Shown: piece after piece, positions 1 through 52,181 of the stretch | Layout: every line of letters starts with the position of its first letter | Position numbering within the stretch: the first letter of the stretch is position 1 | IMG/VR virus record: IMGVR_UViG_2925891887_000001 | DNA length: 64,000 bases | Strand: one strand, 5' to 3' | DNA from: a virus | Taxonomy: Duplodnaviria > Heunggongvirae > Uroviricota > Caudoviricetes | Program-made: the position numbers and the translations under genes | The notes under the pieces: model-generated | What the model saw: only the letters and a program-made list of their open reading frames with translations | Database searches by the model: none | Told to the model about the DNA's origin: nothing

Positions 1-447
1 TTCATCAATAAACAATACCTTCCCACTGGTATTCCCTTCAGTCTTAGCATAAGTGACAATAGGTTCTTCATTGCCAACTCTGATGTTCACTTGGCAACCC
101 GTTGTAGCCATTTCATCACAATAGAGTGTACCGTCTTGAATTTCTAAAACAATTCCAGATGGCTTCATGGCCTCGTTAGAGCTTACATTAGCGTTTTCTG
201 GTACTGCGGTCCCGTTAATTTGCAACCGTAATCTTTCTGTTCCTGCATGAAGTATTGTTTCTTCTGCGTTATCTGAGAATCTATACCAGACTGGTTGAAT
301 CAGACCTCGTGATTTGTATTTTAGTACGTCTTCAGAAGTATACATGCTGTACGTTTTTTGCATGTCAGAGACGAAATCTGATAATGCGTTGGCGGAAAAC
401 GCCGGGAGGCATATACAAGCAAGGAATAACGAAAGTTTCATTTTCAT
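1..447 (-). CDS. Secreted protein, partial (C-terminus beyond window start)
   Basis: Minus-strand frame open from window edge to ATG near 445-447; N-terminus MKMKLSLFLACICLPAFSA looks like a signal peptide. Not in ORF track because no stop lies inside the window. Confidence 0.45.
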   Translation of the reverse strand, partial: MKMKLSLFLACICLPAFSANALSDFVSDMQKTYSMYTSEDVLKYKSRGLIQPVWYRFSDNAEETILHAGTERLRLQINGTAVPENANVSSNEAMKPSGIVLEIQDGTLYCDEMATTGCQVNIRVGNEEPIVTYAKTEGNTSGKVLFIDE

Positions 448-462
448 ATCATGATAATCCAA

Positions 463-951
463 TTATTTAACATCACACTTTCTAATTTTTTCTATTTGTT
501 CTAATTTTTCATGATCATCATTTAGATTTCCTTTGACTATCTCCGTTTCAAGTTTGCTGATTAGCATGTTAAGTGCGTTGTAGTTATTGCATTTTACTTT
601 GTAGGCGTAGTATGACCTTGTCCCTGGTTTTTGTACACCCATATCATTAAAGTTAGAGCTTAAAGTATAACCTTCAAGTTCAACCCCTTTTATTGTTGGA
701 AGAATTATATTTAATGGTTCTAATTTAAATGGGTAGATATAAATATGTGATATGAAGTACTCTTCTGAAGAGATTTTCTTCATGTCTTTTGTGATTGAAA
801 CTGAATATTTACGGTCCCGAGCGATATAAAATTTTGTACATTTGTACGGCTCTAAGTTGAATAGATAATATCTGTCTTTAAAAAGAACATCTTTTCCATG
901 TGATATTTTATGTCGTAAAGAGTTAATTATTTTGTTTATAGAAATACTCAT
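463..951 (-). CDS. Hypothetical protein, low-GC
   Basis: 162-aa ORF in track; visibly AT-rich, Lys/Asn/Ile/Tyr-rich; no recognisable motif. Confidence 0.45.
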   Translation of the reverse strand: MSISINKIINSLRHKISHGKDVLFKDRYYLFNLEPYKCTKFYIARDRKYSVSITKDMKKISSEEYFISHIYIYPFKLEPLNIILPTIKGVELEGYTLSSNFNDMGVQKPGTRSYYAYKVKCNNYNALNMLISKLETEIVKGNLNDDHEKLEQIEKIRKCDVK

Positions 952-1096
952 CTACAGTATCCGACCTTAGTTATCAATTGAAAAGCCTACAAATATCGTT
1001 CAGCCAATCAAGAAATTTTTTCAGCCGGAGGTATGTACTTCAAAAAATGTGATGAATGTCACATGCAGGTGCTCTCATACACCTGCATGTAGACTA

Positions 1097-1673
1097 TTAA
1101 TCATTCAATAATCTATATTTTCTTTTGATTAAATCTTCACCTTTTTTGGTGAACACAAAACCAAATTGCGATTTTTTGTTCAGCCTAAGGACTCTGTTAT
1201 CCAACGCATCGGTTGATGGAATCAATGTTTGATCATCTATCCAATTAAGTAGCGTAAGAAAGTTCAGCAGCCTCAACGTTGTTGTGCGAAGCTCTTTCGA
1301 TATATTTTCAATGCTGGCAATTCGTCTTTCTTTTTTCTCAGGTGGTACAGATAATTGTTCTTGAGGTTTCGTGGGTAGATAATCAATTTCGTTTGCTGAA
1401 TCGAATGATATGTGTGGCGTAATTTTGCTAAAAAAGCCTTTCGCTGACTCACTTGATAATAAACCAGACCTATTCATATCGTTTGTTATTCTGTACAGGA
1501 GTGGACTGTGTTTCATTTCAGGATAACGTTGATAAAAGTTAAGCAATTCAAAAGCAGCATTAGCACCAACAAGAAAATCAGAAGGATCGCTGACTTTCCA
1601 GAAAGAATGATTTTTCTTAGCGCCAGTGGTGTCAACAAATGATAATTCTTTTAACCAACTCATGATGTGCTCC
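1097..1673 (-). CDS. Hypothetical protein
   Basis: ORF track 1097-1696; start moved to ATG (MSWLKEL) preceded by AAAGGAG on minus strand; inverted repeat at about 1059-1090 lies just downstream. Confidence 0.45.
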
Positions 1674-1728
1674 TTTCTAACAAGTGAGCACATCATAGAA
1701 TTAGTAGATAGGGGGTAAATATGAAATG

Positions 1729-2007
1729 TTACGGCAACCTGCTCAGTATTTCCTCTAGATCTTTTTTTGTCATATTGGAGTTCTCATAGATGCGCATGAT
1801 TTTCTCACGCGTCTTAGCGGAAACCCCAACGGCAGATGTGACTTTGTCAAATTCAGCCATAGTCATCGTCTCCAGAATGGCATTGATAACTTCAGCCTTA
1901 GACATCTTGATTTTTTTCTCTTTGAGTTTTATTTGAAATTTTCCAAGTTTTTCATTGGCCTTATCAGACAATGCCACTTGGCAATAAGTTGTTTTCTTTT
2001 CGCTCAT
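1729..2007 (-). CDS. Hypothetical small protein
   Basis: 92-aa ORF tightly packed between neighbours; Lys/Glu-rich. Confidence 0.4.
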   Translation of the reverse strand: MSEKKTTYCQVALSDKANEKLGKFQIKLKEKKIKMSKAEVINAILETMTMAEFDKVTSAVGVSAKTREKIMRIYENSNMTKKDLEEILSRLP

Positions 2008-2009
2008 AA

Positions 2010-3569
2010 CTAATCTCGTTTCAGAACTCCAAAATCGAATGCGCCATCAACAGGCAATACACCTTCTGCAAAGCCAGGTGTGGTGTCGATGATGTGTTTT
2101 CGCTCATAAGAGTGAGACAACAGGTATTTGTTGCTAATGTCAATGAAATCAGTGATAAAACACACGTTTGCCTGATTCTTCTTGGCTCGTAAGCCACGAC
2201 CGACACGTTGTCTCATTTCAACTTCTGCTTTCCCACCACCAGCAAGAATGACCGCACCAACGCTTGGCACATCAACACCGACATCCAGAATAGTCGAGCC
2301 TATTAAAACATCTATGTCGCCAGACGCTAAACTGTTCAGCTTTGCTTGCCTTGTCGACTGGTTCGATTCCCCATAAATGAAGTCAACTCTAAGGCCGGAC
2401 TCTTTCATCATTTCCATCAGGATTTGCCCGTGGCGTTTAAGACGAACCAGAGTCATACAATTGAGAGAATGTTGCTTATAGAGCAATGCTTCGCGAACAA
2501 TGGCCTCATTACGTCCCAAATTATACACGATCCCCAACTGATAAGCCTTTTGGTAGGCAGTGCTCATACCTACTCTAAAATTGAGGTGTTTGTTGGCAAG
2601 TTCTGCCTTGATTCTGGCCTCGTCCGGCTTGTAGGCAACTTTATGATAAAGGAAGTATGGCTTTGCCAGAATGCCTCTATCAATCAGGTACTTTTCCGTG
2701 ACTTTTATTTCAATTCGCCCGGCCACTGCCATCAGACGCATGTTGGCTTCCGTAGAATCCTTCATGAACGGCGTTGCCGTAAGCGCCAGGCGATAGTCTG
2801 CGTTCGCACATAATCTGGCAATGTCATAGAAATTAGAGCCTGAAGACTCATGCGCCTCTTCCAGAATAAGAAGAGAGACACTTGAAAGGAAGCGTTTCAC
2901 CAAGTCCCGACGTTTGAGGTGGTAGCTCTTCTTATCTGGAGTTGCATCGCGTGGTGGTTCTTCAAGGAAACTTGCCAGAGTTTGAACTGTAGCGACGTTG
3001 ATATGTCGTGATACCTGGAACTCACCCGAGCCAATGACTCCAACCTTTTGGTCTTTTAACCACGGTTCGCCATTTTCGGCGCGGTAGTCGATGGATCTCT
3101 GGAAGTTTTCGGCCATCTGAAACATCAGAACAGAGCGGGTTGTTAAAAATAATGTCATTCGACCGATACGTGCAGCTGCTTTGCAGGCAACATTAGATTT
3201 CCCGCCACCAGTAGCGATCTGCGCAATCATCATTCCCTCTCGAACCAGTGTTTCCACAGTCTGATCCTGATATGCATAATCAGGATTGTATGGGAATGGG
3301 TTGACCGCCGGATTTGGCTTTCCAAGCGCCGGAGCTTTGTCTTTGCGGATATGAACACATTTGATGCCCGCCTTGTTCAAGTTCGCCGCTACAGGCTTGG
3401 CAAAGCCAGCAGGGAACGAGTTTTTACTCCAGTTGAACATCGTGCTTGTGCCCTTCCAGTCGCCAGTCTCGACTTCGTAGCTCAACATCTGTTGCACCAG
3501 TTGCTTTACCTTGTCATCTGCGCCAGAAATAAGTGCATTTACTGCGTTAGATACAATCCGAACAGTCAT
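2010..3569 (-). CDS. Superfamily 2 DNA/RNA helicase (DEAD/DEAH-like)
   Basis: Walker A TGGGKS, motif II LILEEAHE, motif III LTATP, motif VI QRVGRGLR in the 519-aa translation. Confidence 0.75.
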   Translation of the reverse strand: MTVRIVSNAVNALISGADDKVKQLVQQMLSYEVETGDWKGTSTMFNWSKNSFPAGFAKPVAANLNKAGIKCVHIRKDKAPALGKPNPAVNPFPYNPDYAYQDQTVETLVREGMMIAQIATGGGKSNVACKAAARIGRMTLFLTTRSVLMFQMAENFQRSIDYRAENGEPWLKDQKVGVIGSGEFQVSRHINVATVQTLASFLEEPPRDATPDKKSYHLKRRDLVKRFLSSVSLLILEEAHESSGSNFYDIARLCANADYRLALTATPFMKDSTEANMRLMAVAGRIEIKVTEKYLIDRGILAKPYFLYHKVAYKPDEARIKAELANKHLNFRVGMSTAYQKAYQLGIVYNLGRNEAIVREALLYKQHSLNCMTLVRLKRHGQILMEMMKESGLRVDFIYGESNQSTRQAKLNSLASGDIDVLIGSTILDVGVDVPSVGAVILAGGGKAEVEMRQRVGRGLRAKKNQANVCFITDFIDISNKYLLSHSYERKHIIDTTPGFAEGVLPVDGAFDFGVLKRD

Positions 3570-3633
3570 AAACCTCTTTCCTTAGTGCCTTTTGTATGTT
3601 ATTTGGCTATTATAATAAGTAAGTGATTACTTA

Positions 3634-4332
3634 ATGGATTGTAGCAATAAAATGGATGTAAAAATCACGATTTTGCAGGTTGATGTTGCCAACCTTCGCC
3701 CGAATACCTGGAACACCAATTCGGTTGGTGCGCAGAATTTCGAAAAACTGAAAGGTTCTATCGAAAAATTGGGCTTTTTTAAGCCAATTTTGGCTCGTGA
3801 ACTTGAAGATGGATTTTTTGAAATCCTCGGCGGCGAACATCGCTGGCGTGCCGCTATTGAGCAAGGAATTTCAACGGTTCCGGTGCTTTCTGTGGGCAAA
3901 ATTAGCGATGTCGTAGCTAAACAGATGTCACTGGTGGACAACGAGCGATACGGTGAAGACGACCAAATCGCATTGCAACGCTTCATTGAAGAAATTCAGT
4001 CAGAGCTTGACTATCAACTGTCTGAAATCGCCCCGTATGACGACGAAATCTCGATGGTTTTAGCAAAAGAGGCGGCAATCGACCTTGAAGCACTGGAGGC
4101 GTTGTCTCGTGGTAGTGATGAGCCTGTCGATACCGACAAACGAGAGAAAACCGAACGTGTGGGTGCGGAACATCAGACCATGCGCTTCAAAGTAACTTTC
4201 GATGCGTCAGATCGTGTTGCAGAAACCATAAAAAACATCATTAAAGAGCAGGCTATTAACACCGGTAATGAAATGGAGAACGCTGGTGAGGCTCTGGTGT
4301 GGCTGGTCGACTACTACAAGGAGCGTATGTAA
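3634..4332 (+). CDS. ParB-like nuclease domain protein
   Basis: N-terminal ParB/Srx-like segment (ARELEDGFFEILGGEHRWRAAIEQGISTVPV); start could instead be the ATG near 3652. Confidence 0.55.
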   Translation: MDCSNKMDVKITILQVDVANLRPNTWNTNSVGAQNFEKLKGSIEKLGFFKPILARELEDGFFEILGGEHRWRAAIEQGISTVPVLSVGKISDVVAKQMSLVDNERYGEDDQIALQRFIEEIQSELDYQLSEIAPYDDEISMVLAKEAAIDLEALEALSRGSDEPVDTDKREKTERVGAEHQTMRFKVTFDASDRVAETIKNIIKEQAINTGNEMENAGEALVWLVDYYKERM

Positions 4333-5000
4333 TGACCAAAAAGTTTGAAATCGTATATCGCGACCCGGCAGATCTTATTCCCTATGAGATGAATGCCAAA
4401 AAGCATGATGAACAGCAGATCCGAGATCTGGCCGCAGCCATTAAAAAGCGCGGATTTGACCAGCCAATTACGGTCGATAAGAACGACGTAATTATTACTG
4501 GCCACGGCCGCCGTGAGGCTGCAATTTTTGCTGGACTTGAGCGCGTACCGGTTATTGTTCGCGATGATCTCAGTGATGACGAGGTTCGTGCGAAGCGCCT
4601 TGAAGATAACCGACTTGCCAGCATTGATTACGATGCAATTAAGCTACAGAAAGAGCTTGAGTCGCTTGTTCTGGACGATATCGAGGTTTTCGGCTTTGAA
4701 GAGCGTGAGTTGAATGTTCTCGTTGGCAGTATGACAGAAGAAATGGACACCGACTCGCTAGTTATCGATCTTGGCGAAGAAACTAAACGACAGAAGGATG
4801 AACACACCGTGATCAGTCGTGAAGTTGCAGCGGAAGAAGTACGTGTTGTCGACGTATTGGGCTTTAAAACGCTCCCTGCTGGCTCTGCCATTGTTGTTGG
4901 TGATTTGCTTGCCCACATGGAAGAAATGACGGGAGAAAGCGGGGTAGACGCATTTGTGGCATATGCGGAGAAGATCTCTTCCGGGGAGATGGCTGCATGA
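4332..5000 (+). CDS. ParB-like nuclease domain protein (second copy)
   Basis: ParB N-terminal-like motif (ITGHGRREAAIFAGLERVPVIV); ATG overlaps upstream stop (TAATG) with AAGGAG upstream; track ORF begins 4299. Confidence 0.55.
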   Translation: MTKKFEIVYRDPADLIPYEMNAKKHDEQQIRDLAAAIKKRGFDQPITVDKNDVIITGHGRREAAIFAGLERVPVIVRDDLSDDEVRAKRLEDNRLASIDYDAIKLQKELESLVLDDIEVFGFEERELNVLVGSMTEEMDTDSLVIDLGEETKRQKDEHTVISREVAAEEVRVVDVLGFKTLPAGSAIVVGDLLAHMEEMTGESGVDAFVAYAEKISSGEMAA

Positions 5001-5635
5001 GCAAATACATCATCAACGTATCGTTTCAGACACGCGTAAATAAAACCACGCGCACGTTGGAAATCGCTGAGTCGTTCGGGCTTGGCCTGGACGAAAAAGA
5101 GTGGACGCTTTACGACAATCTGGAGCTGGAAGTGAAGCAGGGCGATGTGGTGTACATTACCGGCCAATCCGGTTCCGGCAAATCCGTTGTGCTGCGCGAG
5201 CTGCAACACCAGATGAAGGATGAAGGGCTATCTGTGGCCTCCATCGATGATTTTACCTTCGATAATGAGGTTAACGTCATTGACCAACTGGGCAAAACTA
5301 CCAGTGATGCGCTTGGGTTGTTATCTATGGCTGGTCTGAACGATGCATATCTGTTTGTTCGCAAGCCTTCTGAAATGTCAGACGGTCAGAAATATCGTCT
5401 CAAGATTGCCAAACTGATTGAGTCAGGCGCTAAAGTGTGGGCTGCTGACGAGTTCGGCGCTGTTCTCGACCGTGTAACCGCTCAGGTTGTGGCATCTAAC
5501 CTCCAGCGTGCCGCTCGAAAGGTTGGTGCGACGGTAATGGTGGCGACGACTCACGAAGACCTGAAGAACGCGCTGCGCCCGGATATGCAGATCACCAAGC
5601 ACTACAAAGAACGCGTGAAGGTGGAATATGCCTGA
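4997..5635 (+). CDS. ABC-type ATPase domain protein
   Basis: Walker A GQSGSGKS, ABC signature-like SDGQKYRL, Walker B VWAADEFGAVLD, H-loop TTHE; stand-alone 212 aa. Confidence 0.6.
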   Translation: MSKYIINVSFQTRVNKTTRTLEIAESFGLGLDEKEWTLYDNLELEVKQGDVVYITGQSGSGKSVVLRELQHQMKDEGLSVASIDDFTFDNEVNVIDQLGKTTSDALGLLSMAGLNDAYLFVRKPSEMSDGQKYRLKIAKLIESGAKVWAADEFGAVLDRVTAQVVASNLQRAARKVGATVMVATTHEDLKNALRPDMQITKHYKERVKVEYA

Positions 5636-5882
5636 TTTGAAGATCGTAGAGCTGAAGCCATCGAAAGAGACTGATAACAACAACGTGGAAGTCATCCGCC
5701 TGCTGGAAGAAGCACTTCAGCACGCCAGAGAAGGAAAAAGCCAGAGCCTGGCGCTGTTGATGATCAACAACGACGGCAGTGTTCTTGATTGCTGGCATAA
5801 CGGCGGGCGCCCGTATGTCATGGTAGGGGCGATGGAGTCTCTTCGCCTGGATTTCATCAATGCCAATATCGAGCGCAGGTGA
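5628..5882 (+). CDS. Hypothetical protein
   Basis: 84-aa ORF overlapping neighbours (operon-like coupling). Confidence 0.4.
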   Translation: MPDLKIVELKPSKETDNNNVEVIRLLEEALQHAREGKSQSLALLMINNDGSVLDCWHNGGRPYVMVGAMESLRLDFINANIERR

Positions 5883-6778
5883 TCGAGATGGCAGATATCA
5901 TCATCAAACGCTACCGCCCTGAAGAGTTTCCGCGTCATCTGGACTTTCTGGAGCGAATGACTGTCACAAAGGGAACTGTAGAGGACTGGCACGCTCTTAA
6001 GTCGCTTCACTACAAAACAGACGGCAAACCTTTCGCGCCAACTTACTATCGCTGCGAACTTGATGACCGTCTGGTGGGCGTCGTGGTTATGGCTTACCCG
6101 AAACTACTGCTGGCACCTCGCCACCGCATGTTTCCTAAGTTGAAACCAACCACTAATACCACCGTGGCTAACCAGTACTGGGGTCGGTACGTGAATAACA
6201 ACTTTGCGGTGATCAGTCGCTCAGTTGTGGATACTCAGTATCGTGGCGTAGGCGTCTCTTATCGAATGATTAACCTGGTTAGCAGGATGCATGACCGGCC
6301 AATCATTGAGATCCAGTCCTCGATGAGCAAATACAATCCCTTCGCCATGAAAGCAGGGTTTAAGTTCATCCGCCCTGAGCGACCGAAGAGCTATGAAAGT
6401 GCACTGCGTGTATTCCAGCGCCATTTCCGTTCCGACCCGGGTGATAACGAGGCGATCGTCAAAGAGTTGTTCGCAATGAGCGAGTCTCGTCGTCGCCGTG
6501 CACTGCGTGATCTGGTGGCGGACTACCACAAGAACAGTTCCCTGGCAAAAGCTGGGCGGAATCGTGGCACGACGATTCAGGACATTGCCGACAGTCTGGT
6601 GGACGAGGCCAGCATTGTGAAGCTGCTCAAGGACATTCACAACCTGAGCTTTACGTCTCCGTTGTATGGTGTGTACCGAAACCCTGACTTTGGCCGTCGA
6701 CTGCCTGACACGCTGCCACTGCTGGCATTCGACAAACAACCTTTGGATAAACCGTTAGAAATTGCTTTACCGGCATAA
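5879..6778 (+). CDS. GNAT-like acetyltransferase domain protein (tentative)
   Basis: R-x-x-G-x-G-like motif YRGVGVSYRMI typical of GNAT acetyl-CoA binding; 299 aa. Confidence 0.35.
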   Translation: MIEMADIIIKRYRPEEFPRHLDFLERMTVTKGTVEDWHALKSLHYKTDGKPFAPTYYRCELDDRLVGVVVMAYPKLLLAPRHRMFPKLKPTTNTTVANQYWGRYVNNNFAVISRSVVDTQYRGVGVSYRMINLVSRMHDRPIIEIQSSMSKYNPFAMKAGFKFIRPERPKSYESALRVFQRHFRSDPGDNEAIVKELFAMSESRRRRALRDLVADYHKNSSLAKAGRNRGTTIQDIADSLVDEASIVKLLKDIHNLSFTSPLYGVYRNPDFGRRLPDTLPLLAFDKQPLDKPLEIALPA

Positions 6779-6787
6779 GGATTTGCC

Positions 6788-7054
6788 ATGACGTTAACCG
6801 ATAAACAAAAGGACATCATCAAAACGCTCAATCTCGGTTATGAGCGAGGTCATCTACTTGACCTGGACGAATTGCTTGAAGTTTTGCCGTACAAGACAAC
6901 CAAGCAAAGTATCCAGTTCTCAATTCGCGCTCTGATAAAAAAGGGGCTGGTGGAGAAAGGGCATACGCGCCAACGCAGTGACAATCGCTATCACCGCCGA
7001 ACTCTTGGGTTAACTACTTTAGGTCGAGCCAAAGCGAAGTTACTGGTGATGTAA
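6788..7054 (+). CDS. Small putative DNA-binding protein
   Basis: 88 aa, basic C-terminus, winged-helix-like segment (SIQFSIRALIKKGLVEKG). Confidence 0.35.
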   Translation: MTLTDKQKDIIKTLNLGYERGHLLDLDELLEVLPYKTTKQSIQFSIRALIKKGLVEKGHTRQRSDNRYHRRTLGLTTLGRAKAKLLVM

Positions 7055-7135
7055 TCGGTCTGGGAGCTTATTTAAAGACCTGCTTCTGTATATATAAATA
7101 ATAAGTAACTTATTAAATATATACGGAAGCAGGCT
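7055..7135. repeat. Near-perfect palindrome (~58 bp core); one copy of an inverted pair with 41728-41810
   Basis: gacctgcttctgtatatataaataataagtaacttattaaatatatacggaagcaggc; reverse complement recurs at 41728-41785 with about 2 mismatches, and the tttaaaga flank is also shared. Confidence 0.8.
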
Positions 7136-7249
7136 TCGTAAGACATGCCAGACCTAATTAAACACCCCAGAAAACAAGTTGGTTAGCAGATGCAGTAAAC
7201 AAGTTGTTTTAGAGCGCATGGACGCGCTCTGTGTGTTTTAGAGGGATCT

Positions 7250-7882
7250 ATGACGGTCGAAAAAGACGAGGTAAAAACTCGCCTGACACCAGCGGAGTGG
7301 GCCGAAGCTGAAGCCAAATGGACGTCAGGCGAATATACACTCTCAAAGCTGGAGGAAGAGTACGGCATTCGTCGTGAAACACTCTCCAGACATTTCAAAA
7401 AGCGAGGATTAGAGAAAGGCGCGGACTCTGTTGGGAAGATGGTTCGTGAGTCTCTTAAATCTGACGCAGAGCTTCGCGCTAAAGCCCGTGCGGAAAAGAT
7501 AGAAGAACGTCGTACACGTTATGACGGCTGGGCGTATGCGTTGGGGCAGATGGTGATGGTCGAAGTCACTACGGCCAAACGTGAGGGTAAGCCTTTAGGG
7601 GCGATTGAGGATTCTCTCAAGAGCTTACAGAGAGCCAGTAATACCCTTGCAAAATGCTTTGAAGTTTCGTCCAAAGCATTGGGCATGGATCATGCGGAAA
7701 ATGACGAGGAAGAAATTCCGAACCTGGTATTTGGTGAGCTTACGCCTTCCCAGGTGGCGAAATTACGTCAGGAAGACGACGAGCCTGAAATCATCGATGA
7801 CGAATTGCTTGAGACGTTGGAAGAAGAAGCTCTAAGCGAATTTGATGCGACAGATGATGGAAGTGAAGGGGAGGACGAATAA
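7250..7882 (+). CDS. Terminase small subunit (putative)
   Basis: Immediately upstream of large terminase; N-terminal HTH-like segment (YGIRRETLSRHF), acidic C-terminus; GAGG RBS. Confidence 0.6.
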   Translation: MTVEKDEVKTRLTPAEWAEAEAKWTSGEYTLSKLEEEYGIRRETLSRHFKKRGLEKGADSVGKMVRESLKSDAELRAKARAEKIEERRTRYDGWAYALGQMVMVEVTTAKREGKPLGAIEDSLKSLQRASNTLAKCFEVSSKALGMDHAENDEEEIPNLVFGELTPSQVAKLRQEDDEPEIIDDELLETLEEEALSEFDATDDGSEGEDE

Positions 7883-9138
7883 TGGCAATCCCGTCCTCGC
7901 TCAGTCTTGTGCAACTGCATTCTGGACAGATGAAAGTCTTCCAGTCTCCGCATCGATTTAAAGTTGTTTGTGCTGGTCGACGCTGGGGAAAATCCCGGTT
8001 GTCGATCTCCACTATTATTCGTGCGGCGGCAAAGGAAAAAAAGCAAAGGGTCTGGTATGTCGCTCCTACTTACCAGATGGCTCGCCAGATTTTGTGGGAC
8101 GATCTACAGGAAGTTCTGCCTCGTAAGTGGGTTAGGAAAAAGAACGACACCACGATGACAATCGTGTTGAAGAACGGTTCGGAGATCGCCCTCAAAGGTG
8201 CTGATAAGCCTGACACTCTGCGCGGCGTAGCGTTGCATTTTGTAGTGCTTGATGAATTTCAGGATATGAAGGCTGACACCTGGTACAAGGTGTTACGACC
8301 TACTCTTTCATCGACACGCGGCGGTGCACTGATCATTGGTACGCCAAAAGGCTTCTCGGAATTTCACAAACTGTGGACTATAGGCCAGAACGTAGAGCTG
8401 CAAAGAAAGGGACAGTGGAAGAGCTGGCAGTTTGTAACTGCCGATTCTCCGTTTGTGCCTACGGCGGAAATTGAAGCTGCTAAGAACGATATGGACCCCA
8501 AATCGTTCGCTCAGGAGTACCTGGCCAGCTTTGAGAACATGTCCGGGCGCGTTTACTACCCGTTCGATCGTAACGTGCATGTAAAACCGCTTCAGTTCAA
8601 CCCTCGGTTGCCTATATGGGTAGGGCAGGACTTCAACATTGACCCGATGTCTTCAGTAATTTTGCAACCTCAGCCAAATGGTGAGCTATGGGCAATTGAT
8701 GAATTGGTGCTCTTTTCCTCTAACACGGCAGAAGTTTGTGATGAGCTTGAGAGACGCTTCTGGCGCTGGAAATCACAGGTAACGGTATTTCCAGATCCGG
8801 CAGGTGCTTATCGCCAACATGCTCGTGGGGAGTCTGACGTAGACATATTCAAAGAGAAGGGATTCTTACGTGTCGATTATTCGAAAAAGCACCCGCCAAT
8901 TGCGGATCGTGTTAATGCTGTTAACCGAATGCTGATGTCCGCATCTGGAGATATCCGGCTGTATATCGATCCGAAGTGCAAGCATTTGATTGATTCACTG
9001 GAAAAAGTCATCTACAAGCCTGGAACACGAGATATGGATAAGACAGGTGGCATTGAGCATAGTGCAGACGCATTGGGCTATCCAGTACATCGTAGGTATC
9101 CAGTCAAAAACCGTGTTATTCTTGGTGGTTCTCGATAG
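7882..9138 (+). CDS. Terminase large subunit
   Basis: Walker A VVCAGRRWGKS, Walker B-like VLDEFQDM, C-terminal nuclease-like region; 418 aa. Confidence 0.85.
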   Translation: MAIPSSLSLVQLHSGQMKVFQSPHRFKVVCAGRRWGKSRLSISTIIRAAAKEKKQRVWYVAPTYQMARQILWDDLQEVLPRKWVRKKNDTTMTIVLKNGSEIALKGADKPDTLRGVALHFVVLDEFQDMKADTWYKVLRPTLSSTRGGALIIGTPKGFSEFHKLWTIGQNVELQRKGQWKSWQFVTADSPFVPTAEIEAAKNDMDPKSFAQEYLASFENMSGRVYYPFDRNVHVKPLQFNPRLPIWVGQDFNIDPMSSVILQPQPNGELWAIDELVLFSSNTAEVCDELERRFWRWKSQVTVFPDPAGAYRQHARGESDVDIFKEKGFLRVDYSKKHPPIADRVNAVNRMLMSASGDIRLYIDPKCKHLIDSLEKVIYKPGTRDMDKTGGIEHSADALGYPVHRRYPVKNRVILGGSR

Positions 9139-38932: not shown

Positions 38933-39601
38933 ATGACCAAGATCTTTGTGGTTGGCGGCACAAAGGGCGGGCCTGGCAAATCCACCGTTGCCCAGCAAAT
39001 TGCCGTTTGCCTGAAAGTCAAAAAGAAGAAGAAGGTTTATATTACCGATATAGATATTCAGCGCACGACAACGAGCTGGTGTGAAGACCGTCGACAGAAC
39101 GAAGACCTTGAGCTGATTCCTTTCGCATACGTTCAGGATGACATCATTAAGCACCTAAAATCGCTTCAGGGTAGAGCTGAGTTTGTAGTGGTAGATGCTG
39201 GTGGCTTCGACTCCGAAATTCAGCGACAAGCGATGCTGATGGCTGACGTTATCATTATCCCGCTGCGTCCTAAGCGTCGTGATTTGAAATCTTTACGTGA
39301 CATCGATCCTATTATCGACAATGTTCGCAATGTAAACGATAAAGTGAAGGTCCGCGCGGTCATGAACCAGTGCCCGGCTTTGCCATCACAAGTGTCTCGC
39401 ATTCTGGCGGCTAAAGAGATTGTTGAGACGTTTGGCATCGAGTCTGCGCCAGTCAATCTATATAACCGCAACGTCTATGATGATGCGGAAGAGTCTGGTC
39501 GTTCTATCTTTGAAATGACCGGTAGCGAGCGCGACAAAAAGGCGGAAGCCGAGTTTGAAGAATTTGTAGATTATCTGTTGAGTCTGGAGGAAGAAGAATA
39601 A
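38933..39601 (+). CDS. ParA/ParF-like partition ATPase (type Ib)
   Basis: Deviant Walker A GGTKGGPGKST, small size (222 aa), acidic C-terminus. Confidence 0.8.
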   Translation: MTKIFVVGGTKGGPGKSTVAQQIAVCLKVKKKKKVYITDIDIQRTTTSWCEDRRQNEDLELIPFAYVQDDIIKHLKSLQGRAEFVVVDAGGFDSEIQRQAMLMADVIIIPLRPKRRDLKSLRDIDPIIDNVRNVNDKVKVRAVMNQCPALPSQVSRILAAKEIVETFGIESAPVNLYNRNVYDDAEESGRSIFEMTGSERDKKAEAEFEEFVDYLLSLEEEE

Positions 39602-39960
39602 TGTCCATGAAAATGGGTGACCTAGCAAAGCGCAAAGAGCCTGATGCACCGGCTAAGAACACAACTCCTTTGCGCCAACCAGTCAGACCACAGGGACGCC
39701 CGACTCGTGGCAAAGAGAAAATTAAAAGCCGCACAATGTCACTGGAGGACGAATACTTCGAACTGCTGGAGATGATGAAGTTCATCCCTCGCTTCGAGAA
39801 GTTCACTCGTTCTGACGTGATTCGTGCTGCTATTTTCCATCTTGCGGAGAAGACACCGCAGGAAATCGAGGACATCGTGAAACTTAACGAGGCGATCACA
39901 GCTGCCGATGTCACGATGCGTACCGATGAAATTAAACGCGAGTTGATGAAGAAAGGGTGA
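39601..39960 (+). CDS. Partition centromere-binding protein (ParG/RHH-like), putative
   Basis: Small basic protein coupled to ParA (start overlaps stop); unstructured basic N-terminus, C-terminal helix-rich region. Confidence 0.5.
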   Translation: MSMKMGDLAKRKEPDAPAKNTTPLRQPVRPQGRPTRGKEKIKSRTMSLEDEYFELLEMMKFIPRFEKFTRSDVIRAAIFHLAEKTPQEIEDIVKLNEAITAADVTMRTDEIKRELMKKG

Positions 39961-40011: not shown

Positions 40012-41718
40012 ATGGAATCGATAGAAGTATTTTTAAAAAATTTTTTGGACTCAGATCATCGGGTTGCTGTCATAAAAGGAAATTGGGGAGTAGGTAAAAC
40101 GCATTATTGGAATAGCTTTTATACTAAACATTCTAAAAAATTAGATTTTAATGCATATTCATATGTTTCTTTGTTTGGAATAAATTCTATTGGAGACATT
40201 AAAAAAGCTCTTTATCATTGTGCCACACCAATTAATGAAAAGAAATATAAAGAACTGATTTTATCTGAAACGGATCGAACTATGATTCGTTATAGAAATG
40301 GGTTTTGGGGATGGTTGAAATACAACTCCTTGTCAAAATTTATAATACATTTTGGAAAGAACGATTTTTTTGGGTTCAAAACTGATAATCTGCTGTCATC
40401 TCTTGAGTATAAATTTGTTAATAATTATTTGGTTTGCATTGATGATATTGAACGAAAAGGTAGTGCGCTAGAAATTAAAGAGATTATGGGGGTAATTGAT
40501 GAGTTGGCAAGAAGAAAAAATTGCAAGGTTGTTCTAATATTAAATGAAGATAACTTACATGAAGAAACTGCACAACAACAGTTTTTAGAGTATAGAGAAA
40601 AAATAATTGATGTGGAAATAAAATACGATCCCACGCCTGAGAAAAACTTAAGAAAAGTTTTTTATGAGACTGACCCTGATTTTCTTTTGTTAAAAAACCT
40701 AGCAAATGATTTAAACATCAAAAACATTAGAATATTAAATAAAATAAAATCATCTCTAGTTATATTTAGAGATGTGCTAAAGTTAGCAGAGGATAAGGTT
40801 AGAGAAAGTTTTATTAATAGATTGGTCTTATTTTCAGTGGTTTACTATTTTGGTGTTCCTAGCGTTGATTATGCTTCATTTAAGGAGTCAATCAAAAATA
40901 TACATGCATTCGACTATATGTTAGATGATAAAGATGAAAAGGAAGAAGTTAACTCTGTATATTCATTTGTTAATAGCCTTGATGTTATTTATGAACGAGC
41001 AGAAAGTGCTTTCGATGATGATATAGATTTTTACCTTAAGAACGGTTATGTTTCTTCTGAAAGCAATATTCTAAATATAATAAAAGAAAAAAATGAACAA
41101 TATAGAGATAATAGGGTTTTATGTGAGGTTTATAAAATTTGGGATGTTTTTAGAAACTCTTTTAAAGATAATGAATCAGAGTTTATTTTTCAAATTGAGC
41201 GCGTAATTAACGATAGTCTGTTGCGTATACCAATTGGACAGTTCGTAGGTTTAATAAATGTCCTAATTAAATTGGATAGAGATTGTAATAATATTATAGA
41301 GGCATATGCAGATGCTTTTGTTAATAAAGACAATGCGTATGCTACATTTAATTCTTTGCGAGTAGAGATCTTCGGAAATGAAGAATTAGGTTTCAGAATT
41401 GAAAAAAAATTGAAAGATAGAAATCCAGATGACTATAACTTAGATAAAATTATAAAAAAAATAGCTGGTGGAAGATTTAACCATAGTGATGTGAATATTC
41501 TTAACAGTTTTTCTAAAGATGATTACGTAAACTGGATATTATCCTGTGATCAGGATGCTTTGAATTTAGTAGAAGAGACTATGCTCAAGTTCAAGGGTAT
41601 GCAACACCCGACAGACGAACAGAAGAGCATCACTGATAAAGCAATAGAAGCTTTGGAGGAAGTTGCTTCAAAATCAACACTTAATAAGCTGCGTGTTAAT
41701 AAAATACTCAATCATTAA
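40012..41718 (+). CDS. KAP-family P-loop NTPase-like protein, low-GC cargo gene
   Basis: Walker A GNWGVGKT and Walker B LVCIDDIER about 120 aa later (KAP-like spacing); strongly AT-rich versus flanks; bracketed by hairpin 39962-39990 and palindrome 41728-41785. Confidence 0.55.
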   Translation: MESIEVFLKNFLDSDHRVAVIKGNWGVGKTHYWNSFYTKHSKKLDFNAYSYVSLFGINSIGDIKKALYHCATPINEKKYKELILSETDRTMIRYRNGFWGWLKYNSLSKFIIHFGKNDFFGFKTDNLLSSLEYKFVNNYLVCIDDIERKGSALEIKEIMGVIDELARRKNCKVVLILNEDNLHEETAQQQFLEYREKIIDVEIKYDPTPEKNLRKVFYETDPDFLLLKNLANDLNIKNIRILNKIKSSLVIFRDVLKLAEDKVRESFINRLVLFSVVYYFGVPSVDYASFKESIKNIHAFDYMLDDKDEKEEVNSVYSFVNSLDVIYERAESAFDDDIDFYLKNGYVSSESNILNIIKEKNEQYRDNRVLCEVYKIWDVFRNSFKDNESEFIFQIERVINDSLLRIPIGQFVGLINVLIKLDRDCNNIIEAYADAFVNKDNAYATFNSLRVEIFGNEELGFRIEKKLKDRNPDDYNLDKIIKKIAGGRFNHSDVNILNSFSKDDYVNWILSCDQDALNLVEETMLKFKGMQHPTDEQKSITDKAIEALEEVASKSTLNKLRVNKILNH

Positions 41719-41727
41719 TAGATTATG

Positions 41728-41810
41728 ACCTGCTTCCGTATGTATTTAATAAGTTACTTATTATTTGTATATACAGAAGCAGGTCTTTTAAAGACGCCCA
41801 CCAGAACAAG
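41728..41810. repeat. Near-perfect palindrome; inverted copy of element at 7055-7135
   Basis: gacctgcttccgtatgtatttaataagttacttattatttgtatatacagaagcaggtc; reverse complement matches 7078-7135 with about 2 mismatches. Confidence 0.8.
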
Positions 41811-51527: not shown

Positions 51528-51602
51528 GATGGTGTAGCTCAGCGGTAGAGCAGTTGGCTGTTAACCAACTGGTCGGTGGTTCGAATCCACCCACCATCGC
51601 CA
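51528..51602 (+). tRNA. tRNA-Asn (anticodon GTT)
   Basis: Manual fold: acceptor gatggtg/caccatc, D-arm tagctcagcggtagagca, anticodon loop ctGTTaa, T-loop ggttcgaatcc, encoded CCA. Confidence 0.8.
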
Positions 51603-51607
51603 ATTTA

Positions 51608-51694
51608 GGGGAGTTAGTCCGTAGAGGTAGCGGTGTAGACTGTAAATCTACTGTCATGGCGACTCGGGTGGTTCGACTCCATCACTCCCCACCA
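51608..51694 (+). tRNA. tRNA-Tyr (anticodon GTA), long variable arm
   Basis: Acceptor ggggagt/actcccc, anticodon loop ctGTAaa, long variable arm, T-loop ttcgact, encoded CCA; D-arm pairing weak. Confidence 0.7.
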
Positions 51695-51698
51695 AATT

Positions 51699-51774
51699 GC
51701 CGGTTTAGCTCAGTTGGTAGAGCAGTCGCTTTGTAAGCGAATGGCCAGCGGTTCAAGTCCGTTAACCGGCACCA
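51699..51774 (+). tRNA. tRNA-Thr (anticodon TGT), tentative isotype
   Basis: Acceptor gccggtt/aaccggc, D-arm tagctcagttggtagagca, anticodon loop ttTGTaa, T-loop ttcaagt, encoded CCA. Confidence 0.7.
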
Positions 51775-52094
51775 ACACAACAGGTAAGAGCATTGGGCGA
51801 ATCGGCGATACTGACCCACAAGGCCGTAAATCGATAGAGTCAGACCAGTGCTCTTACCGTTGTGAGGAAGTGCAGCTCTTTGAAGCAACCAGAAGATAAG
51901 CATCTGGCTTCACAACACAACGATAATATCATTACGGTTAATCGTCGTTCATGTGCACAATGACTGGTCGAAAGGTAGTGATCTTACCGTTGTGATGAAT
52001 GCACAGGCTGATGTGCCGCAACTACAGTAGTGCGCGCTTTGCGGGGCTTGCTACAACCCTGTGTCGGAGTTCAGCACCGACCATCACAATAGCT

Positions 52095-52181
52095 GGAGAG
52101 TAGGGAGCATGGTGCTCAAGCGGTCTTGAAAACCGTCCCATTGTGCAAACGATGATGGTTCGATTCCATTACTCTCCGCCA
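52095..52181 (+). tRNA. tRNA-Ser (anticodon TGA), atypical D-arm
   Basis: Acceptor ggagagt/actctcc, anticodon loop ctTGAaa, long variable arm, T-loop ttcgatt, CCA; D-arm lacks canonical GG. Confidence 0.55.

Follow-up and report, generated by a model that had tools for sequence, protein, structure and literature searches.

A terminase-linked operon of ParB-like, ABC ATPase and GNAT-fold genes in SSU5-like phage-plasmids: a candidate enzyme system acting on viral DNA

We describe an operon that lies directly upstream of the terminase genes in an SSU5-like phage-plasmid of Escherichia coli, within a 64,000-nucleotide stretch of tailed-virus DNA (Caudoviricetes; IMG/VR record IMGVR_UViG_2925891887_000001), hereafter the window. 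The operon encodes two ParB-like proteins (ParB1 and ParB2), a stand-alone ATP-binding cassette (ABC) ATPase and a protein with the fold of the GCN5-related N-acetyltransferases (GNAT). By sequence and profile comparison, the ABC and GNAT genes are the split form of the 'COG2401'-type family of ABC-GNAT fusion proteins. In rare members from other viruses this ABC-GNAT unit is fused to ParB, to family-B DNA polymerase (PolB) or to a GINS domain, and the position of the unit beside the terminase recurs. The operon is most safely classed as a ParB-assisted enzyme system that acts on viral DNA and whose ABC-GNAT catalytic core is without precedent. Going further, we propose, tentatively and with somewhat less than even confidence, that the operon encodes one nucleotide-gated machine that would acylate viral DNA after replication and before packaging.

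Split and fused forms of the ABC-GNAT unit

A search of 1.84 billion representative proteins with a profile built from the GNAT-like family returned 968 relatives. Among the best 150 of these, 61 are proteins of at least 400 amino acids (aa) with an N-terminal ABC_tran domain and a C-terminal GNAT-like region that includes the C-terminal domain of the phage protein. The domain order of the fused proteins, ABC before GNAT, is the gene order of the phage. Compared with the ABC half of P0282, a protein from Nitrososphaerota, the ABC protein of the window shows 45% identity over 214 aa (E 4e-58). The phage GNAT profile, together with its C-terminal domain, matches the other half of the fused protein with an hhalign probability of 99.9 (E 8.5e-33), at about 25% identity in contrast to the 45% of the ABC half. 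Some fused homologues also score on the Pfam models Acetyltransf_1, Acetyltransf_7 and Acetyltransf_10, weakly (1.6e-5 to 1e-3) and in some cases above the cut-off, and these matches give the GNAT fold assignment support at the sequence level. In the structural model of a fused member (predicted local distance difference test score, pLDDT, 87.3; predicted template modelling score 0.81) the ABC half resembles ordinary transporter-type nucleotide-binding domains. The structural matches of this half include the ATP-binding subunit of the methyl-coenzyme M reductase activation complex, PhnK/PhnL of C-P lyase, ABCE1 and the SMS iron-sulfur complex, and none of the structural matches is a solved structure combining ABC and GNAT. 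In every locus of the SSU5-like clade that we examined ABC and GNAT are separate genes, and in the window a small gene, p84, stands between them.

The fused ABC-GNAT proteins number at least 2,262, the named sources being assemblies of Nitrososphaerota, Bathyarchaeia and Thermoproteota, and wherever we looked the fused family was seen only in viruses and proviruses. In archaeal contigs the fused gene stands at the end of an integrated tailed provirus, right after the gene of the large terminase subunit (TerL) in L152 and L153, and in L151 and L152 ordinary cellular genes begin within about 4 kb or less past it. In 80 viral contigs it follows a conserved run of tail genes. At the 48 viral loci with both TerL and the fused gene, the latter is the next open reading frame (ORF) after TerL in 39 and the second ORF after it in five. 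By gene order, the unit is tied to the terminase in three virus lineages. TerL of the window and of the archaeal provirus L152 share 28% identity in a partial alignment, in contrast to 45% for the ABC domain. Such a difference between an E. coli element and archaeal proviruses implies either very strong constraint or horizontal transfer of the ABC-GNAT gene between viruses of bacteria and archaea. Hidden Markov models (HMMs) built from the SSU5-like clade detected no homologue of the neighbouring helicase, of the small terminase subunit (TerS) or of the small basic protein p88 within 8 kb of archaeal-type fused genes. Neither the module nor the ABC-GNAT family was described in the literature that we searched. 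The genes themselves are scattered over many public records, in part under wrong names, and JGI and the record of phage Cyrano use the name 'COG2401' for homologues.

The ABC ATPase and the GNAT-fold protein

A preliminary description made from the letters of the window alone had named five proteins, namely the two ParB-like proteins, the ABC ATPase, a GNAT-motif protein and a helicase of superfamily 2 (SF2) on the opposite strand; all five are where it had placed them, and domain searches upheld the assignments. The ATPase was rightly called a complete 212-aa ABC domain (PF00005, 5.9e-13), as all catalytic motifs can be read: Walker A GQSGSGKS, signature SDGQ, Walker B VWAADEF, D-loop AVLD and H-loop TTHED. 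No permease or transmembrane gene is found in the operon or at the related loci that we list.

The GNAT-motif protein has no match in Pfam, in NCBIfam or in a PDB sequence search. Its AlphaFold model is confident (pLDDT 90.7, from a 49-sequence alignment) and has the GNAT fold, with an N-terminal GNAT domain followed by a conserved helical/beta C-terminal domain of about 130 aa without a recognised relative. Motif A reads R122-G-V-G125-V-S127, where R122 and G125 are invariant, and motif B (N153, A156, G160-F161) is conserved; the canonical form of motif A, R-G-I-G-L-G, occurs in the fused family. The motifs for acyl-coenzyme A (acyl-CoA) in the GNAT part and the catalytic motifs of the ABC part are invariant in both the phage and the archaeal families. 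The protein has an isoelectric point (pI) of 9.8 and a net charge of +12 in the GNAT domain; it and p88 are the basic components of the operon. Among viral structures, the GNAT model matches a Mom protein best, at a similarity no better than that to generic GNATs, and neither sequence nor structure indicated a relation to Mom that is more specific than the generic fold.

PADLOC, run on the operon proteins and the helicase, identified no defence or anti-defence system. Its generic matches concern the helicase cores of PbeA and of a type IV restriction endonuclease, the P-loops of mad3, mad8 and PtuA and, for the ParB-like proteins, the N-terminus of MTase_II.

Fusions to ParB, polymerase and replication domains

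Two proteins of 664-666 aa, P0226 and P0251, combine ParB_N, ABC and GNAT in a single chain; they score 3e-10 and 3.6e-7 with our local ParB1 HMM, and 0.01 and 4.4e-4 with PF02195. P0198 is a weaker candidate for the same architecture (ParB1 HMM 0.00099; no Pfam ParB_N match at 0.05). On the viral contig L114 the genes for a TerS-like protein, TerL and the portal come directly after the ParB-ABC-GNAT gene, just as they follow the operon in the window, and a second ParB gene, with a helix-turn-helix (HTH), is found nearby. Read from gene content and order, the layout of L114 mirrors the SSU5-type module. Genes in L144 and L146 that combine ParB_N with an N6_N4 DNA methyltransferase have a ParB domain with 51-55% identity to that of the L114 fusion. 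Such ParB_N + N6/N4 DNA methyltransferase genes adjoin TerL in three of four viral loci checked, among them L144 and L147, in L147 with one on each side. A ParB domain with a variable partner next to the terminase may be a general pattern in tailed viruses.

Other fusions connect the ABC-GNAT unit with replication proteins: PolB is joined to it in P0189 and P0174, and Gins51_C, the C-terminal domain of archaeal Gins51, in P0188 (3.7e-18). A TFIIB repeat is fused in P0155, and P0162 carries an intein inside the ABC domain. Taken together, the gene fusions tie ParB, ABC and GNAT into one unit, and this unit to DNA replication proteins. Two side observations may be recorded here. One PolB fusion has a length of 1,260 aa, the same as that of a Yasminevirus protein among the structural matches, which may or may not be the same protein. 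In L148 a stand-alone ParB_N gene occupies the position beside TerL.

The two ParB-like proteins

That two consecutive ParB-like proteins are present is clear from the PF02195 scores of 49.9 bits for ParB1 (3.3e-13) and 35.2 bits for ParB2 (1.3e-8), both above the cut-off of 26.3 bits. ParB1 also matches phrog_723 (2e-79), and its residues 13-160 align to Spo0J (1vz0). Invariant in 27 orthologues are N27, N29, R55, G66, G67, H69, R70, D102 and N103. The GxxR motif of Box II is present as GGEHR (invariant GG-x-HR) in ParB1 and as a conserved GHGR in ParB2, and both proteins can be aligned with the domain that binds CTP in structures of Spo0J, ParB and Noc. The ParB fold can bind CTP, ATP or GTP, and which nucleotide is bound is not predictable from the sequence of the fold (Kaljevic et al., PNAS 2025, PMC12704722).

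Both proteins are acidic (pI 4.56 for ParB1 and 4.55 for ParB2), and neither matches HTH_ParB (PF17762). In ParB1 the stretch that aligns to the HTH of Spo0J is a degenerate, acidic remnant (the middle part of the protein has a pI of 4.1), followed by a conserved C-terminal part of about 50 aa, possibly with a ribbon-helix-helix fold. ParB2 matches phrog_930 (5.9e-112). Its residues 3-155 match the N-terminus of phrog_498, a 'DNA methyltransferase' (6.9e-32), and it also matches the N-terminal region of MTase_II in PADLOC (2.7e-17). To judge from these matches, ParB2 is a stand-alone version of the ParB module that is fused to DNA methyltransferases in other phages.

In phages, ParB folds are most often fused to DNA methyltransferases, and a bacterial fusion of ParB with an acetyltransferase binds GTP (PMC12704722). 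For one subclass of phage thymine dioxygenases, experiments have shown that a phage ParB without a DNA-binding domain activates the enzyme when the substrate is double-stranded DNA (O'Toole et al., PNAS 2026, PMC13229309).

We agree with the preliminary description that the operon is not a partition system. No ParA gene was found in the operon at any locus examined, and the ParA-type ATPase of the window lies 34 kb away, together with its own small partner (38933-39960); this ATPase (38933-39601) is genuine, as seen from MipZ, CbiA and ParA matches. We reject a partition system on the grounds that ParA and HTH are missing, that the ParB-like proteins are acidic and that the module is retained in lytic phages such as Nickievirus.

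Distribution and conservation

The Escherichia phages CMS-2020a and Cyrano are 98% identical to the 5-kb region of the window that contains the operon, and Salmonella phage SSU5 is 84% identical; we assign the window to an SSU5-like phage-plasmid of E. coli because of these matches. The 3.4-kb operon is present in 247 of 5,426 complete E. coli genomes, where it is always plasmid-borne and never chromosomal. The order helicase (minus strand), ParB, ParB, ABC, variable gene, GNAT, (small basic gene), TerS, TerL, portal is found again at each of the related loci that were fetched with enough flanking sequence. It is kept down to 37-47% GNAT identity in gamma-, alpha- and betaproteobacterial elements, the related loci including proteobacterial contigs of approximately 100-120 kb, marine metagenomic phages and an Ectothiorhodospira element. 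This recurring arrangement is not due to chance.

Since these loci had been picked through the GNAT-like gene, we also ran the converse test, starting from TerL. Exactly 31 phage records carry a TerL with at least 53% identity, and the set of records with the GNAT-like gene, which was scored in all of them, is identical; the full operon was verified in a subset. The records comprise lytic and temperate phages, among them lytic Nickievirus, Rhizobium RHEph10-like phages and Stenotrophomonas phages. Phages that come next in TerL similarity (at most 45% identity, 30-60 kb in size) lack the GNAT-like gene. The operon is thus part of the clade core and not an accessory. Within the clade the ABC protein is about as conserved as TerL (53-64% versus 54-65% identity), while the ParB-like genes and TerS diverge faster.

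The SF2 helicase, which the preliminary description had noted on the opposite strand, does not belong to the module. It adjoins the operon regularly within the SSU5/Nickievirus clade alone and is absent beside the fused forms of other lineages. It is a lineage-specific neighbour and probably the last gene of a leftward replication block.

Operon layout and regulatory features

The features of the operon and of its surroundings in the window are as follows.

2010-3569, minus strand: SF2 helicase, 519 aa (ResIII 1.6e-14, DEAD 3.7e-14, Helicase_C 5.3e-13; phrog_16, DNA helicase, 4e-93)
3570-3633, no strand: divergent intergenic region of 64 bp between the helicase and ParB1, with ATAATAAGTAA at 3612-3622
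3634-7054, plus strand: the operon as a whole (ParB1, ParB2, ABC, p84, GNAT, p88)
3634-4332, plus strand: ParB1, 232 aa, PF02195 (226 aa from an alternative start at 3652)
4332-5000, plus strand: ParB2, 222 aa, PF02195
4997-5635, plus strand: stand-alone ABC ATPase, 212 aa, PF00005
5628-5882, plus strand: p84, 84 aa, with a match to phrog_796 only
5888-6778, plus strand: GNAT-fold protein, 296 aa (299 aa from GTG 5879)
6788-7054, plus strand: p88, basic protein of 88 aa and last gene of the operon, phrog_900 (1.9e-45)
7079-7133, plus strand: hairpin with 17-bp arms, CCTGCTTC..GGAAGCAGG, an inverted repeat just 3' of the operon
within 7171-7210: two AACAAGTTG boxes between the first and the second hairpin
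7210-7231: second terminator-like hairpin, immediately before the TerS start
7250-7882, plus strand: TerS-like protein, phrog_867
7882-9138, plus strand: TerL, Terminase_6N (3.1e-9)

The translational coupling upstream of the terminase genes that had been noted before is visible at the junctions. ParB1 and ParB2 overlap by 1 nt (TAATG, read directly from the sequence), ParB2 and ABC by 4 nt (ATGA) and ABC and p84 by 8 nt; gaps of 5 nt between p84 and GNAT (a GTGA overlap if the GTG start is used) and of 9 nt between GNAT and p88 follow. Two start codons of the preliminary description need correction: ParB2 starts at ATG 4332 and not at 4299, and the GNAT-like protein most likely at ATG 5888, a start favoured by the length of its homologues (296 aa) and by the annotation of SSU5. 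The genes listed there stand, and p84 and p88 have to be added to them.

The gene p84 is confined to the closest relatives and is missing in phage Cyrano. Across loci L003-L033 the spacing between ABC and GNAT, taken from the ends of tblastn matches, varies between 14 and about 1,230 bp, and Phage_gp49_66 genes, RyR-domain genes or other unrelated small genes occupy the slot. The ABC-GNAT junction is an insertion hot spot, and p84 is not a core part of the operon. The protein p88 (pI 10.19) has weak matches to the Sta1 and Lrs14 HTH families (2.5e-3 and 4.2e-3), and a homologue is detectable in about half of the related loci. It may be a winged-helix protein and is a candidate DNA-binding partner or late-gene regulator.

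The hairpin at 7079-7133 is probably the terminator of the operon; its GC-rich outer stem is kept in L006 and L009, and its inner part varies. The public linear records of SSU5 and Cyrano end inside this hairpin, at ~7116 and 62 bp past the p88 homologue, which may reflect convention rather than a mapped genome end. The Nican01 record, reported as 'DTR (long)', is rotated so that it begins at TerL. The spacer from the operon to TerS measures 195 bp. Because the hairpins and the AACAAGTTG boxes separate the operon from TerS, the module is probably a transcription unit of its own that starts in the divergent region shared with the helicase, and p88 may regulate the late operon, as far as local sequence features indicate. 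The second hairpin, before TerS, suggests that the late promoter is under the control of antitermination or of an activator. Three exact copies of the 11-mer ATAATAAGTAA are present in the window, at 3612-3622, in the hairpin loop at 7098-7108 and at 41754-41764 on the minus strand, and with one mismatch allowed there are five sites versus 1.07 expected; the copies may serve as a common operator or promoter element. In 3570-3633 no consensus site for sigma-70 was called.

Proposed function and alternatives

We read the operon as an ATP-driven acyltransferase system because ParB, ABC and GNAT form one unit, because this unit is joined to replication proteins and because it lies beside the terminase, as ParB-methyltransferase fusions do. 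According to this hypothesis, the ABC ATPase and the GNAT-fold protein would form a complex equivalent to the single-chain ABC-GNAT proteins. Paired subunits closing on ATP are common to all ABC ATPases. Two ABC subunits of the proposed complex would close in this way and would thereby move two basic GNAT/C-terminal modules onto DNA. The GNAT domain would then transfer an acyl group from acyl-CoA, most likely to a DNA base, and the two acidic ParB-like proteins may serve as a nucleotide-gated heterodimeric activator or loader. The modified DNA might be protected from host nucleases, or might be marked as phage DNA, when the terminase packages it. What the comparison shows are the domain identities, the relation of split to fused forms, the fusions with ParB, PolB and GINS and the repeated location beside the terminase; that a complex forms, that DNA is the substrate, which acyl donor is used and how the phage benefits are inferred. 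There is precedent for the chemistry. TmcA/NAT10 combines a P-loop ATPase with a GNAT domain and uses NTP hydrolysis to drive the acetylation of cytosine in RNA, and Mom of phage Mu has a GNAT fold and modifies adenine in phage DNA.

In favour of acylation of viral DNA we count the ABC-GNAT unit itself, the triple fusions with ParB, the ParB module shared with methyltransferases and the links to PolB and GINS, and further the invariant motifs, the charge pattern, the structural match to Mom and the presence of the GNAT-like gene in 31 of 31 close relatives. Several observations weigh against it. The literature searched contains no report of DNA modification in SSU5-like phages or Nickievirus, although their genomes are routinely sequenced. 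The most constant neighbour across lineages is the terminase, which a role in packaging would explain equally well. The ABC half is far better conserved than the GNAT half, so that the ATPase, and not the transferase, could carry the key function. A clade-universal gene conserved at the level of TerL would be unusual for a pure anti-restriction device. Finally, the HMMs built from the SSU5-like clade found no ParB-like gene within 8 kb of archaeal fused genes, and ParB is therefore not universally needed. A bolder version of our hypothesis, which we regard as speculative and rather unlikely as a whole, is that ABC-GNAT proteins with ParB loaders form a new class of ATP-driven DNA acyltransferases. 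Such enzymes would leave an undescribed acyl mark, for example N4-acetyl-dC or N6-acyl-dA, and would be an ancient terminase-linked hallmark of bacterial and archaeal tailed viruses, possibly also of giant viruses (in PolB-fused form). Of the three functions offered in the preliminary description (DNA modification, anti-restriction and packaging), none is singled out, and the fusions and the terminase linkage narrow the field.

The strongest alternative, unlikely in our view and yet to be taken seriously, is an accessory role in packaging. The ABC-GNAT engine, with the ParB-like proteins in the SSU5-like clade, would assist the terminase in the preparation or resolution of concatemers, in the recognition or cutting of the packaging site, or in the regulation of TerS/TerL. 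The HNH proteins encoded beside the terminase in cos phages offer a comparison. Gene order speaks for such a role, as the fused gene follows TerL directly in 39 of 48 viral loci (two ORFs away in five) and also in archaeal proviruses, and as the module lies directly upstream of TerS/TerL in the window, in the clade and in L114. The same is true of conservation: the ABC protein keeps pace with TerL within the clade and exceeds it between bacterial and archaeal elements (45% versus 28%, the latter over a partial alignment), and the GNAT-like gene is found in all 31 close relatives, both lytic and temperate. However, adjacency to the terminase is not specific to packaging factors because ParB-methyltransferase fusions also adjoin it (L144, L147), and a conserved hairpin and the 195-bp spacer separate the operon from TerS in the window. 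Moreover, a packaging factor gives no reason for an acyl-CoA transferase with intact motifs, and the PolB and Gins51_C fusions suggest replication rather than packaging.

Somewhat less probable still is a protein acetyltransferase that tracks along DNA. It would acetylate lysines of DNA-bound proteins, be they host nucleoid, silencer or defence proteins or the replication and packaging proteins of the phage, and would strip or reprogram them before replication and packaging proceed. An enzyme tethered to DNA-bound machines is in keeping with the fusions to PolB, GINS and a TFIIB repeat, this reading would also account for the usual chemistry of GNAT enzymes, and a bacterial fusion of a ParB fold with an acetyltransferase exists (PMC12704722). 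The ParB module of the operon, however, is shared with DNA methyltransferases, which act on DNA and not on proteins, and it is hard to name a target common to E. coli phages and Nitrososphaerota proviruses. To our knowledge, protein acetyltransferases need no dedicated ATPase, and the one well-studied pairing of an ATPase with a GNAT domain, that of TmcA/NAT10, acts on a nucleic-acid base; this reading accounts neither for the dedicated ATPase of the operon nor for the methyltransferase link.

We consider it improbable that the ParB-like proteins are regulatory or partition-like, that is, nucleotide-dependent clamps that control late transcription or position genomes, with ABC-GNAT as unrelated cargo. 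ParB-fold regulators such as KorB, Noc and DndB are known (background in PMC12704722), the operon is located at the junction of replication and late genes, and it ends with the small basic HTH-like protein, followed by the terminator-like hairpin and the repeated AACAAGTTG boxes. On the other hand, both ParB-like proteins lack an HTH or a basic DNA-binding region, partition is supplied elsewhere in the window, lytic relatives retain the module, and the ParB-ABC-GNAT triple fusions imply that the parts are not independent.

Acetylation of tRNA or other RNA in the manner of TmcA, which would tune the translation of late genes, is very improbable: the logic of ATPase plus GNAT is that of TmcA/NAT10 and the phage carries a tRNA cluster (51528-52181), but the fusion partners (ParB, PolB, GINS) are centred on DNA, the constant neighbour is the terminase, and neither an RNA-binding domain nor a similarity to TmcA beyond the GNAT fold was seen. 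An ABC transporter, as suggested by the PF00005 match and by the names of these genes in PHROG, GenBank and RefSeq ('ABC transporter', 'ABC transporter ATP-binding subunit'), can be dismissed, as there is no permease in the operon or beside its homologues, the partner of ABC in the fusions is a soluble GNAT module and the GNAT-like gene, named 'second ATP-binding subunit' (phrog_886), encodes a protein that lacks a P-loop and has the GNAT fold, which refutes the name for this gene.

Relation to known systems

The closest parallel to the ParB-like proteins is the ParB-dependent thymine dioxygenase 5mYOX176 with its partner ParB176 (PMC13229309), a small ParB with a nucleotide-binding N-terminal domain and a C-terminal domain, without a DNA-binding domain, that is encoded next to the enzyme and is needed on double-stranded DNA. 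ParB1 and ParB2 share the architecture and size class of ParB176, as known here from sequence. In contrast to 5mYOX176, an Fe/2-oxoglutarate dioxygenase, the partner is an ABC ATPase with a GNAT-fold protein, and there are two different ParB paralogues. A second parallel are the fusions of ParB_N with N6/N4 DNA methyltransferases (phrog_498; PMC12704722), whose N-terminal 150 residues ParB2 matches at 6.9e-32. Unlike in these fusions, the operon contains no methyltransferase domain, the catalytic partner being replaced by ABC-GNAT.

Together, the ABC and GNAT proteins of the window align over the whole length of the 'COG2401' ABC-acetyltransferase fusion. They differ from it in being encoded by two genes, with a variable slot at the junction and two ParB-like genes alongside. 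The fusion type is named after MK0520.

The likeness to TmcA/NAT10 is a functional analogy only, a P-loop NTPase coupled to a GNAT domain; TmcA/NAT10 has a RecD-like helicase domain instead of an ABC domain, acts on RNA and shows no sequence relation beyond the GNAT fold. Mom of phage Mu (PDB 8bv8) resembles the operon protein in its GNAT fold and in that it acts on phage DNA. However, Mom has no ATPase or ParB partner, and the C-terminal domain of about 130 aa is an addition in the GNAT family of the operon. The Dnd system, which carries out DNA phosphorothioation, comprises the ParB-like regulator DndB and the ABC/SMC-like ATPase DndD; the analogy is that a single operon combines proteins of the ParB fold and of the ABC ATPase class with the modification of DNA. 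Unlike DndD, the ABC protein described here is of the type of transporter nucleotide-binding domains and not SMC-like. Dnd-related matches are weak and generic, and no operon protein matched DndA, DndC, DndE, SspA or SspD components in Pfam, NCBIfam or PADLOC.

The module does not overturn anything; it is widespread, conserved and experimentally tractable, and it comes with a concrete hypothesis. SSU5-like phage-plasmids are common in clinical Enterobacteriaceae and spread resistance genes, and the operon they carry is widely mis-annotated as an ABC transporter. The comparison exposes a large virus-specific family that is linked to the terminase by gene order and to ParB, DNA polymerase and GINS by fusion. 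Should the operon modify DNA, it would bring a new chemistry and a new ATP-dependent mechanism to phage genome modification, and ParB-fold proteins would be known as partners of DNA-modifying enzymes from two independent cases. Should it act in packaging instead, the packaging apparatus of tailed viruses would gain a new and widely conserved component. Relatives among the phages of E. coli, Salmonella and Pseudomonas can be cultivated, and either outcome is testable.

Other features of the window and its relatives

In a marine member of the clade (L004/L005), genes at 1573-1998 and 189-614, respectively, encode a dATP/dGTP pyrophosphohydrolase (PF04447), a type of enzyme associated with phages that replace adenine by 2-aminoadenine. 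In the window, the tRNA cluster at 51528-52181 consists of four genes (Asn-GTT, Tyr-GTA, Thr-TGT and Ser-TGA) and lies beside a low-GC stretch at 52-54 kb (36% GC). Directly after the ParA-type partition genes (38933-39960), an island with 31% GC contains a gene for a KAP-family P-loop NTPase of 568 aa (40012-41718), which looks like a horizontally acquired accessory or defence gene. The left flank of the window (1-2000; 36% GC) carries small genes on the minus strand (phrog_1466 and others) that differ between SSU5, Cyrano and the window, and it appears to be variable and accessory.

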